DNA of 64,000 nucleotides. Source: an uncultured Acidobacteriota bacterium. Lineage in GTDB: Bacteria > Acidobacteriota > Thermoanaerobaculia > UBA5066 > DATFVB01. Below are positions 26,730 through 45,692 of this stretch, in pieces. The notes below the pieces were generated by a model. It searched no databases, was not told where the DNA came from, and saw only the letters and a list, made by a program, of their open reading frames with translations. Both the position numbers and the translations under genes were made by a program. The stretch lies in NCBI GenBank assembly GCA_963813155.1, contig CAWEYG010000005.1, positions 160,001 through 224,000 of the forward strand. The letters are read 5' to 3'. Position 1 is the stretch's first letter, and each line of letters opens with the position of its first letter.

Positions 26730-26806
26730 CGGGGCGTAGCGCAGTCCGGTAGCGCTCCTGCTTTGGGAGCAGGAGGTCCCCGGTTCAAATCCGGGCGCCC
26801 CGACCA
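26730..26806 (+). tRNA. tRNA-Pro (TGG)
   Basis: 77-nt cloverleaf CGGGGCG...CGCCCCG-ACCA; anticodon arm CCTGC-TTTGGGA-GCAGG; T-arm GGTTCAAATCC; TGcCATAAT extended -10 just upstream. Confidence 0.97.
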
Positions 26807-40127: not shown

Positions 40128-40970
40128 TCAGGCGGCGTCTTCTCCCGCGAACTCGATTCGAACGTCCCGAACGAGGCCCGCCCGGGCCGCGCGCCCGAGG
40201 AAGGTCTCGATCGCGAGCCGGCCCCGTTCGCCGTAGCCGCGCGTCCAGTCGTTGACGTACATCGCAACGAAGCGATCCGCCTTTTCGCGGTCGAGGTCGC
40301 GGGCGAACTGCATGGCATAGTCGAGCGCGTCCTTCCGGTGGTCCAGCGCGTACTCGATCGAATCCCCGAGCGCGCCCGACACTCTTCGAATCGTGTCCGC
40401 TCCAAGGTCCTTCCGGATGACGTTTCCCCCGAGCGGCAGCGGTAGTCCGGTCTCCTGCTTCCACCAGGCCCCGAGGTCGACGACCCGAAACAGTCCTTCC
40501 GTCTCGTAAGTCAACTGGCCCTCGTGGATGAGCACGCCCGCGTCCACCTCCTGGGACTGCACGGCCGCAAGGATCGCGTCGAAGGGGAGGGTCGTCGTGG
40601 CGGTCCCGGGCCTCCAGAGCTGGAGCGCGAGGGCGGCGGAGGTCTTCGCCCCGGGGATCGCGACGCGGATTCCCTCCAGGTCGTGCTTCGAGAGAGGGCG
40701 CGAGGAAACGACGACCGGGCCGTAGCCGTCTCCGAACGAGGCGCCGTGCGGGAGCAGCGCGTAGTGCTCCGCGACGCCGGGATAGGCGTGGAACGAAATG
40801 GCGGAGACGTCGAGCTCGCGGTTTTCCGTCCGGCGGTTGAGCGTCTCGATGTCCGACAGCTGGTGGACGAACTCGATTCCGCGGTCGTCGATCTTTTTTT
40901 CGGCGAGCGCGTAGAACATGAATGCGTCGTCGGAATCCGGGGAATGAGCGACCGAGATCGTCTTTCTCAC
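40128..40970 (-). CDS. mqnD: MqnA/MqnD family menaquinone (futalosine pathway) protein, probably MqnD
   Basis: AHSPDSDDAFMFYAL, DIETLN, SFGDGYGP, LIHEGQLTY, LPLPLGGN, MYVN. Confidence 0.85.
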   Translation of the reverse strand: MRKTISVAHSPDSDDAFMFYALAEKKIDDRGIEFVHQLSDIETLNRRTENRELDVSAISFHAYPGVAEHYALLPHGASFGDGYGPVVVSSRPLSKHDLEGIRVAIPGAKTSAALALQLWRPGTATTTLPFDAILAAVQSQEVDAGVLIHEGQLTYETEGLFRVVDLGAWWKQETGLPLPLGGNVIRKDLGADTIRRVSGALGDSIEYALDHRKDALDYAMQFARDLDREKADRFVAMYVNDWTRGYGERGRLAIETFLGRAARAGLVRDVRIEFAGEDAA

Positions 40971-41015
40971 AGGGACACCCCGCCAAAAAAAAGTTTGAAA
41001 ATCAAGAAATATTTC

Positions 41016-41043
41016 TTGCGTCTCGTCGAAAAACACTTAAAAT
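41016..41043 (+). promoter_or_regulatory. Sigma70-type promoter with AT-rich upstream element
   Basis: TTGCGT-N16-TAAAAT preceded by A/T tracts (40985-41015) that are rare in this GC-rich DNA. Confidence 0.6.
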
Positions 41044-41044
41044 G

Positions 41045-41192
41045 AAATCGCCGAAGGGAATCAAGCCCTCCGGCGATTTAGGAGCGAATGTTCCTACAAA
41101 CTAACGGTAGTGACAGTCCGCAGGTGTTACGCCCCTTCCCAATCAGGGGGGTCAACATAGCACCGGCCCAACGGTCTGTCAATCGACTACCG
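41045..41192 (+). ncRNA. Structured 5' leader or ncRNA of unknown family
   Basis: Hairpins 41045-41079 and 41079-41096, then an ~88-nt rod 41105-41192 (CGGTAGT/ACTACCG, GACAG/CTGTC, GGTGTTA/TAGCACC, CCCCT/AGGGG). Confidence 0.5.
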
Positions 41193-41208
41193 GGAGGGAG
41201 GTGACGAA

Positions 41209-41271
41209 ATGGCCACCAAAAAGAAAGCTGCCAAGAAGAAGACCGCGAAGAAATCCACCAAGAAGAAGTAA
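41209..41271 (+). CDS. 20-aa lysine-rich micro-protein MATKKKAAKKKTAKKSTKKK (histone H1-like repeat)
   Basis: GGAGGT SD at 41197-41202, ATG..TAA, followed by an intrinsic terminator. Below the ORF-track size cutoff. Confidence 0.75.
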   Translation: MATKKKAAKKKTAKKSTKKK

Positions 41272-41293
41272 CTCAACTCTGTCTAGGGTTTGA

Positions 41294-41320
41294 CGGGGCC
41301 TTCGGGCCCCGCTTTTTTTT
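41294..41320 (+). terminator. Rho-independent terminator
   Basis: CGGGGCC-TTCG-GGCCCCG followed by T8. Confidence 0.9.
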
Positions 41321-41385
41321 GTCCTTTTTCGCGGACGGGGCCGTCCATCGGCTCTTCAGCTATATCTGAGATGATATAGTTGGCC

Positions 41386-41883
41386 GTGTCGCTCGAACAC
41401 GTTCTCCTCGCCCTCCTCTCCGATCAACCCGCGTCCGGCTACGAGCTCAAGAAGCGAATCGAGAGCGAGCTCGACCCGCTGTGGAGAGCGGAGGTCTCCC
41501 AGATCTATCCCTCGCTGGACAGGCTGCGTCGGGCGGGATTTGTGGCGATGAAGGTCGTCGGGCCCGGGCGGGGCCCGCGGAGCAACCGCCACCGGATCAC
41601 CCCCCGCGGACGCCGCGAGCTGGAGCGCTGGTGGAAGGAGCCTCTCCGGCCTCCGGATCTCCGGGACGAGTCCTTGCTGCGCGTTCTCGCGTCGGAGGCG
41701 GGCGGCAGCCGGGCGTTTGCCGATTCTCTTCGGGTCTACGACCGGGCGCTGTCGGACGAGATGGCGAGGCTTCGGAAGAAGACCGCCGCGACCGTGATCG
41801 CCGAGGCGGTCCGGCAGGCCGCGCTGTCCCGGCTGGAGGCGGCGAGGCGCTGGGCGCGCGCCCGGTACCCTACTTCTTCTTGA
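41386..41883 (+). CDS. PadR-family transcriptional regulator
   Basis: [33 protein letters not shown]. Confidence 0.85.
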
Positions 41884-45561: not shown

Positions 45562-45692
45562 GCCGAGGCCGACGATGAGTTCAGGCACCCCTGCGGCGCA
45601 CGGTGGCATCTCCTGATCGCTGCTTCCTTCCGGACCTGACGAGGTTCGGAGACTTCCGTCGCACAGGACCCGAACTCATCCTCGGCCCCGGC
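45562..45692 (-). ncRNA. ffs: Signal recognition particle RNA
   Basis: Minus strand holds the domain IV core TCAGGTCCGGAAGGAAGCAGC inside a long hairpin; classic position upstream of dnaX. Ends approximate. Confidence 0.92.

Follow-up and report, generated by a model that had tools for sequence, protein, structure and literature searches.

The plus strand of the 64,000-nucleotide (nt) stretch of an uncultured Acidobacteriota genome analysed here (hereinafter, the window) contains, at positions 41016-41320, a compact gene unit that consists of promoter-like elements, a leader of about 160 nt, a Shine-Dalgarno (SD) site, a small open reading frame (sORF) for the peptide MATKKKAAKKKTAKKSTKKK, and a terminator. 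The unit is conserved among relatives, the sORF varies in the manner of coding sequences, the leader RNA shows covariation, and RNA of the unit is present in soil libraries. The reading that we favour, with moderate confidence, is that this locus is a conserved sense/antisense pair, in which a translated polycationic micro-protein that binds nucleic acids or the ribosome is controlled by an antisense RNA. An earlier note, made from the letters of the window, had described a complete stand-alone expression unit that was missed by the list of open reading frames (ORFs), and this description is borne out, each of its elements lying where the note had placed it. The elements are the following.

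41003-41018, no strand assigned: perfect 16-nt palindrome CAAGAAATATTTCTTG, overlapping the -35 element of the plus-strand promoter
41016-41043, plus strand: promoter-like elements (-35 TTGCGT at 41016-41021, 16-nt spacer, -10 TAAAAT at 41038-41043)
41045-41079, no strand assigned: hairpin H1, the 5'-terminal stem-loop of the plus-strand RNA; terminator-like on the minus strand (14 pairs, T-rich tail at 41044-41035)
41081-41094, plus strand: hairpin H2 (GGAGC GAAU GUUCC), present in the minimum free energy (MFE) fold
41105-41192, plus strand: 88-nt rod, made of helices P1-P4
41105-41111 with 41186-41192, plus strand: rod helix P1
41112-41116 with 41176-41180, plus strand: rod helix P2
within 41105-41192, plus strand: rod helices P3 and P4, the latter an apical C-rich/G-rich hairpin
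41154-41182, minus strand: sigma-70-type promoter located in the rod's 3' arm (-35 TTGACA at 41182-41177, 17-nt spacer, -10 TATGTT at 41159-41154)
41036-41147, minus strand: predicted cis-antisense RNA (about 105 nt) that would pair with the sORF leader over its first ~100 nt
41192-41204, plus strand: SD region GGGAGGGAGGTGA, with the core GGAGGTGA at 41197-41204, 4 nt 5' of the ATG
41209-41271, plus strand: sORF of 20 amino acids (aa) with a TAA stop; 11 of the 20 residues are Lys
41294-41320, plus strand: intrinsic terminator (stem 41294-41311 of 7 base pairs, all G-C, with a UUCG loop, followed by T8)

Conservation and coding character of the small open reading frame

The occurrence of the unit in relatives goes beyond chance. 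A BLAST search with 40990-41380 matched 33 of 41 related genomes, with matches in 6 of 6 genomes of the family denoted here f1, in 17 of 17 of f3 and, partially, in 9 of 17 of f2. A covariance model of the rod plus the SD site (R2, 109 positions, derived from 26 sequences that represent the three families) detected the unit in 34 of 36 members of the order (3/3 in f1, 17/17 in f3 and 14/16 in f2), once per genome, and in none of 114 other genomes of the class. The genome to which the window belongs likewise carries a single copy. When 401 genomes of the class were scanned with a pattern comprising the SD site, ATG and a start of the form (A/P)(T/A)KK, matches were obtained in 4/4 genomes of f1, 56/57 of f3 and 32/38 of f2 and, among the 301 genomes from the other 20 families, in 3. 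These three matches and a second match in genome G002 are the N-termini of ORFs of at least 120 aa, one of the four continuing into ribosomal-protein-like sequence, and were rejected as unrelated. The order of genes is common to all three families: a menaquinone biosynthesis (mqn-like) gene on the minus strand, the sORF on the plus strand and a padR gene on the plus strand. Judging from these sequence comparisons, the unit is a single-copy, syntenic element that has been vertically kept across one order comprising three families.

A pattern scan of all species genomes yielded at least 119 stretches; among the matches listed, the Lys-rich sORF is complete in 108, truncated at the edge of the retrieved stretch in 4 and absent from 7. 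Five of the latter, titled Planctomycetaceae, Paenibacillus, Thermoplasmatota, Algoriphagus and Cryptobacteroides, were treated as chance matches, and so were L121 and L136. Among the 80 titles listed, the carriers are metagenome-assembled genomes (MAGs) labelled Thermoanaerobaculia, Acidobacteriota or Holophagales, bar one labelled Acidithiobacillales. A complete unit typical of f2 is found in this last MAG (L115) and in several Holophagales-titled records, which suggests mis-binning or loose taxonomic labels; the Acidithiobacillales-titled record is probably mis-binned. Two genomes flagged as unpublished, G002 and G008, contributed loci L003 and L011 to the alignments and are included in the counts, and no claim is made on them alone.

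The Lys-rich ORF proposed in the earlier note holds up in all relatives that carry the unit with full flanks. From 135 such units, 116 of them distinct, an intact ORF of 18-28 aa was recovered in every one of the 116 (the stop codon is TAA in 100 and TAG in 16), and every difference in length among the copies is in frame. Among the 32 distinct 19-codon sequences of the 19-aa class, there are 4, 4 and 14 variable sites at the first, second and third codon positions, respectively, and the corresponding numbers for the 24-aa class are 3, 3 and 10. The SD core and the ATG show no variation among the sequences aligned from the three families (32 of 32). The ORFs encode 37 distinct peptides, such as MATKKKAAKKAKKATKKKK, MPAKKKAAKKSTKKAKKGKK and MATKKAAKKAAKKAAKKPAAKKAKK, whose 787 residues comprise 411 Lys, 177 Ala, 58 Thr, 48 Gly, 37 Met, 34 Ser, 15 Pro, 5 Val and 2 Arg; thus, the peptides are 52% Lys, contain no acidic or aromatic residues and lack a hydrophobic stretch, the 5 Val and the initiator Met being the only hydrophobic residues. 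Lys is encoded by AAG in 1194 of 1285 codons, and both the N-terminus MATKKK and the spacing of the Lys pairs are conserved. By these comparative indications, the sORF is a sequence that behaves as coding. The near-total preference for Lys over Arg is selected rather than compositional because the genome has a G+C content of 65.9% and a six-frame scan of it yielded few Lys-rich windows (10), the sORF being the only one in a short frame. The gene has been missed by annotation, since an exact look-up of 8 peptide variants in a set of some 15 billion predicted proteins found none of them.

Two further observations pertain to Lys-rich coding sequences of these genomes. In f3 and in part of f2 (loci L008-L024 and L026), the stop codon and the last Lys codons sit in a small hairpin, for example, GUAAGU-CAAGC-ACUUAC or GAAGUAAC-UUCG-GUUACUUC, with apparent compensatory changes; this hairpin is not obvious in the window's own family. 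On contigs C2, C3 and C5 of the window's own genome, a few longer ORFs start with Lys-rich tails, such as MAKKKARKAKKK, MTKKTASKKKTASAKK and MAAKKAEKKTKKSAPKK.

So could the run of Lys codons be a sensor, as the earlier note had suggested as an alternative? Under this scenario, the sORF would be a lysine-sensing leader peptide, with ribosome pausing at Lys codons controlling read-through of the terminator into padR, and it is compatible with the 9-13 Lys codons, with the distance of 22 nt between the sORF stop and the terminator and with the fact that padR is always the next gene. We nevertheless consider such an attenuator highly improbable because this next gene encodes a PadR-family regulator (PF03551, E = 1.7e-15) rather than a lysine gene and is preceded by a conserved palindrome of its own. 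Furthermore, the conservation of MATKKK and of the Lys-pair spacing exceeds the needs of codon sensing, and no conserved antiterminator was evident in the folds that were made, which involved no dedicated search for one. As for the terminator itself, its stem covaries among relatives (CGGGGCC/GGCCCCG as opposed to GGGGGCC/GGCCCCC, among others), and the T-run is kept.

The structured leader and the predicted promoter on its opposite strand

The architecture that the earlier note had read from the letters, namely, an SD site, an ORF with 11 Lys among 20 residues, a terminator and three stem-loops including an 88-nt rod, is confirmed, and the RNA is markedly more stable than expected from its composition: the MFE of a 281-nt stretch is -102 kcal/mol, compared to -83.1 +/- 5.0 kcal/mol for dinucleotide shuffles (z = -3.78; none of the 200 shuffles was as good). 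The RNAalifold consensus of 22 representatives of f1 and f3 consists of 34 pairs that make up H1 and helices P1-P4 of the rod; H2 is kept in f1 and forms a hairpin only inconsistently in f3 and f2. In these 22 sequences, 96.9% of the consensus cells are paired, compared to 34-54% after sliding the partners by 1-3 columns, and changes on both sides are found in 7 pairs, compared to 1.8 +/- 1.0 after shuffling (none of 500 shuffles reached 7), so that the structure in the earlier note has the support of covariation. The f2 sequences were added by alignment to a covariance model, R1, because MAFFT alone misaligned their 5' arm, and all 15 of 15 match this model over its full length (E from 5.7e-7 to 3.5e-3). 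In the resulting three-family rod, 88.5% of the cells are paired, with both-side changes in 13 of 23 pairs and in 74 cells, as against 23 +/- 4 cells after shuffling, all these values coming from an alignment that was fitted to the model and leans towards it.

Which strand carries the structure was assessed on the fixed consensus, the MFE-based G-U counts of the two strands (340 and 341) being uninformative. In the rod, G-U or U-G combinations occupy 36 cells and A-C or C-A combinations 3 cells, on account of which we take the rod to be a structure of the plus-strand RNA. H1, read on the plus strand, has no G-U cells and 5 A-C or C-A cells, the latter being G-U on the minus strand. Similarly, the rod is more stable on the plus strand in 96 of 111 copies (on average, -37.4 compared to -33.9 kcal/mol) and the minus strand gives the more stable H1 in 51 of 75 (-24.3 compared to -22.7 kcal/mol), although the copies are related and the support from both of these counts is thus overstated.

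The leader does not belong to a known Rfam family, be it 6S RNA, the lysine riboswitch or the leaders of ribosomal-protein genes. At gathering scores, Rfam yields no matches in 40900-41450; in an E-value search, the best scores were 9.6-17.6 bits, compared to cut-offs of 41-100, and most of these matches cover the terminator only. The unit is not the 6S RNA of this bacterium because the canonical 6S RNA of the same genome (RF00013, 80.3 bits; locus L158) lies elsewhere, at G000:C3:661376-661561 on the minus strand.

On its minus strand, the rod's 3' arm carries the sole promoter-like site that the scan found in 40800-41500: it agrees with the sigma-70 consensus at 10 of 12 positions (0.2 +/- 0.4 such sites in shuffled sequences) and has, in addition, a TG in the spacer at 41162-41161, with the predicted start at about 41147. 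Each of the 116 distinct copies of the unit has the arrangement TTGACA-N17/18-TGnTAnnnT, with N17 in 80 and N18 in 36, and the -10 element takes the forms TAATTT, TAGTTT, TAGGTT, TATGTT, TACGTT, TAGCTT and TACTTT. Invariance falls on the hexamers, the TG and the final TT, and the spacer varies, covarying with the other arm of the rod; read on the plus strand, the invariant columns of the 3' arm (CTGTCAA, TAGCA and AA) are the elements of the minus-strand promoter. The -35 element was part of the pattern by which loci from L039 onward were retrieved and was no part of the BLAST and model searches, and all sequences that the latter found carry TTGACA as well.

Further downstream on the minus strand, past this promoter, a hairpin (-20 to -28 kcal/mol) with 5 or more T in the next 8 nt occurs in 113 of the 114 distinct upstream regions. 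In f1 and f3, the hairpin with its T-run is found in 78 of 79 regions, about 100-110 nt from the promoter, and in f2, in 35 of 35 (6-7 T of 8), about 110-140 nt from it. The sequences of the f2 hairpins bear no relation to those found in f1 and f3, so that it is the feature, and not its sequence, that is conserved. The conserved promoter and the hairpin with its T-run lead us to predict a cis-antisense RNA that covers the 5' part of the leader, with its end coinciding with the -10 element of the plus-strand promoter. The earlier note had proposed that the leader is a cis-regulatory RNA; its being structured and conserved stands, and the promoter-plus-terminator unit embedded in its minus strand had been missed, which shifts the picture from a cis-regulatory leader to a sense/antisense pair.

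Could the minus-strand promoter serve another purpose? The gene downstream on the minus strand encodes a VitK2_biosynth protein in all three families, and the 75 nt before its start contain no convincing promoter of its own, either by eye or by a scan hit. A scenario can therefore be drawn in which the promoter serves this menaquinone gene (start codon GTG at 40970), H1 acts as an attenuator and the sORF stands alone; in a variant of this scenario, the invariant bases serve the plus-strand leader as a recognition site. We regard this explanation as unlikely: the hairpin with the T-run that intervenes in all but one of the upstream regions would stop most of the transcription, and the invariant bases are those of the hexamers, the TG and the TT, the spacer following the other arm of the rod.

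The architecture is also reminiscent of type I toxin-antitoxin modules, with a small ORF behind a long structured 5' untranslated region (UTR) and a predicted opposing small RNA gene that has the better promoter and overlaps the UTR; TimP/TimR and the type I modules of Clostridioides are reported precedents for such an arrangement. If the locus is a domesticated module of this kind, the peptide would be harmful when over-made, by condensing the nucleoid or ribosomes, and the antisense RNA would be the antitoxin. We hold this to be improbable. The peptide is a hydrophilic polycation and not a membrane peptide, and its lack of a hydrophobic segment makes a toxin of the classical type I unlikely, as does the fact that the locus is single-copy, syntenic and vertically inherited across the order, whereas such modules are typically patchy and multi-copy.

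RNA contigs of the unit and the possible roles of its products

Six RNA runs from six studies contain 27-38% of the sampled words of 40900-41500, and four of these runs were aligned to 40600-41800. Three soil libraries yielded contigs that lie entirely within the unit: 231 nt from X16 (41057-41287, no differences), 212 nt from X17 (41057-41268, 1 difference) and 190 nt from X20 (41061-41250, no differences); one contig bridges the leader and the ORF, and the limits of the contigs fall just inside the predicted plus-strand start and the terminator. The flanks, 40600-41050 and 41300-41800, are represented only by loose-ended pieces of 31-50 nt from other organisms, and the flank parts left uncovered are uninformative by themselves. 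Some contigs of other organisms in the X16, X17 and X20 libraries match the AAG-rich part of the unit only (window 41218-41273) and continue into Lys/Ala-rich coding sequence; hence other soil bacteria represented in these libraries likewise possess Lys-rich ORFs.

These contigs bring up the question whether the RNA itself is the main product. Dual-function small RNAs (sRNAs), such as SgrS/SgrT and RNAIII, are short, abundant and structured and contain a translated sORF, and (A-R-N)n triplets are the binding motif of the distal face of Hfq. The transcript of the unit could accordingly be a regulatory or sponge sRNA in which the AAG-rich stretch and the rod bind a protein, translation being secondary or RNA-stabilising. 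The conservation of the leader above that of most 5' UTRs and the discrete contigs of ~190-230 nt in the three soil libraries are compatible with this possibility, and the dominance of AAG among the Lys codons, along with the freedom at third positions, would suit A-R-N triplets as well. However, an RNA that only binds a protein has no need of an invariant, optimally spaced SD site, an invariant ATG and an in-frame stop right after the Lys run, as found in 116 of 116 copies with a genomic G+C content of 66%, and A-R-N does not accommodate the codons for Ala, Thr, Gly and Ser that separate the Lys pairs, so that we consider this reading rather unlikely. The likeness to SR7/SR7P, as reported, extends to a short structured RNA carrying a translated sORF; the present unit differs from dual-function sRNAs in that its structured part precedes the ORF and that a predicted antisense gene overlaps this part.

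Under the sense/antisense reading, a plus-strand transcript of ~270 nt (~41049-41320) would deliver, through its 160-nt structured leader and strong SD site, a peptide of 18-28 residues built almost entirely from Lys, with spacers that are Ala, Thr, Ser, Gly or Pro. The extended -10 promoter in the 3' arm of the rod would fire towards the 5' end of the leader, with H1 acting as the terminator of the minus-strand transcript, and give an antisense RNA of ~105-140 nt. By pairing with the 5' half of the leader, this RNA would open the rod and set the stability or translation of the mRNA; cleavage of the duplex by a double-strand RNase is one possible route, and the divergent promoters could, in addition, interfere with each other. 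Given its composition, the peptide is most likely an intrinsically disordered polycation that binds polyanionic nucleic acid. 

Two roles appear to us about equally likely by analogy with known proteins, that of an additional micro-protein associated with the ribosome, comparable to bS22 or eL41, and that of a minimal H1-like nucleoid binder. The earlier note had inferred a minimal protamine-like nucleoid or RNA-binding peptide, and for that role, too, it is the composition that speaks. Proteins or tails with KKAA/AKK-type repeats, such as Hc1/Hc2, AlgP and the HupB tail, contain tens to hundreds of residues and use Lys over Arg even in G+C-rich genomes. The peptide resembles them in its KKAA/AKK-type repeats and in having Lys instead of Arg, and differs in being a free-standing chain of 18-28 residues with its own promoter, leader and terminator; it matched no Pfam family, histone-H1-like proteins included, at E values up to 1. 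The peptide shares traits of micro ribosomal proteins in being very short and more than half basic, and whole contigs from three of the four RNA runs lie on its unit; bS22, eL41, bL37 and Thx are, like it, very short and highly basic, often unannotated, with abundant transcripts. In Borrelia, bS22 is the product of an unannotated 93-nt gene, with 61% Lys plus Arg and an abundant transcript, that was found only through cryo-EM density (PMC10618245). The peptide departs from these proteins in being based on Lys only (2 Arg among 787 residues), in lacking hydrophobic anchor residues, in its variable length with repeat-like indels and in having no sequence match to family models or solved chains, for which it is a low-power query.

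Several points weigh against the sense/antisense reading. The peptide itself is predicted here from sequence and RNA contigs, and the comparisons with Pfam (E up to 1), NCBIfam and the chains of the PDB (E up to 10), which have low power with 20 low-complexity residues, found no matches. The range of lengths, from 18 to 28 aa, and the repeat-like spacing suit a loose polycation better than a peptide that fills a defined pocket of the rRNA. The antisense RNA is predicted from elements of the DNA, and the invariant bases could instead be a recognition site for RNA or protein in the plus-strand leader. Masking of the 5' part of the leader that the antisense RNA would cover produced no consistent change in the predicted accessibility of the SD site (on average, 0.26 compared to 0.25 unpaired in 37 representatives); with the effect thus inconsistent, a switch based on sequestration of the SD site lacks mechanistic support and was dropped. 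One of the four RNA runs examined, X15, has no contig on the unit, and the contigs of the others come without strand, start or end, cannot be ranked by abundance and derive from RNA libraries that can hold DNA, for which reason we treat them as supportive and not decisive. Finally, the plus-strand promoter is modest, with 8 of 12 consensus positions, falling under the threshold of the promoter scan and unlisted by it. The 'strong promoter' of the earlier note can be upheld on the strength of conservation and of the RNA contigs and not by its match to the consensus: TTG and TAnAAT (TAAAAT, TAGAAT or TACAAT) and the spacing are unchanged across f1, f3 and f2, and the start of the transcript is predicted at about 41049.

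Neighbouring elements and significance

The 16-nt palindrome CAAGAAATATTTCTTG is a candidate operator, a role suggested by its overlap with the -35 element and by the presence of the inverted repeat CAAGAA...TTCTTG at the same position in all three families. It is the sole perfect copy in its genome, and hence the regulator is not inferable from a search for a regulon. On the other side of the palindrome lies the divergent, minus-strand VitK2_biosynth (menaquinone, mqn-like) gene (PF02621, E = 1.5e-74), and downstream of the unit, on the plus strand, the padR gene. Directly 5' of the padR start, there is another palindrome, CTATATC-N6-GATATAG (window 41360-41388), which is kept in most relatives, includes the sequence TATAGT 6 nt from the start codon and has a near-copy beyond the window, at G000:C5:152541-152559. 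The start codon of padR is probably GTG 41386, giving MSLEHVLL as in the relatives, and the position of the palindrome and TATAGT suggests that the gene may be autoregulated and leaderless. Elsewhere in the window, the Rfam scan identified a bacterial small SRP RNA at 45576-45675 on the minus strand (71.1 bits) and a tRNA at 26730-26803 on the plus strand (68.5 bits).

The general kind of locus, in which a micro-protein gene is combined with a structured leader and with a cis-antisense RNA, is already known. What appears to be new is the family itself, the Lys-only product, its order-wide conservation in single copy and the overlap between an RNA helix and a promoter of the opposite strand; among the papers listed by full-text searches, none deals with this locus or with Lys-only micro-proteins in Acidobacteriota. 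The rod with the SD site is a new RNA motif that, in the form of model R2, can be used for annotating these genomes. One set of bases has to serve both as an RNA helix on one strand and as a promoter on the opposite one, a case of compact, overlapping constraints. A more ambitious version of the sense/antisense reading, possible and in our view doubtful, is that the peptide is a minimal, tunable condenser of the ribosome or nucleoid, similar to protamine or eL41, the dose of which is set by an antisense RNA with its promoter inside the leader helix; if true, it would be among the smallest and purest polycations encoded by any bacterial gene, in effect Lys and Ala only. In any case, a peptide gene that is invisible to gene callers is present in nearly every genome of an uncultured order of soil bacteria, with RNA at levels sufficient for its assembly from three soil RNA libraries. 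Should the peptide belong to the ribosome or the nucleoid, it would represent a new family of micro-proteins in a phylum whose cell biology is barely known.

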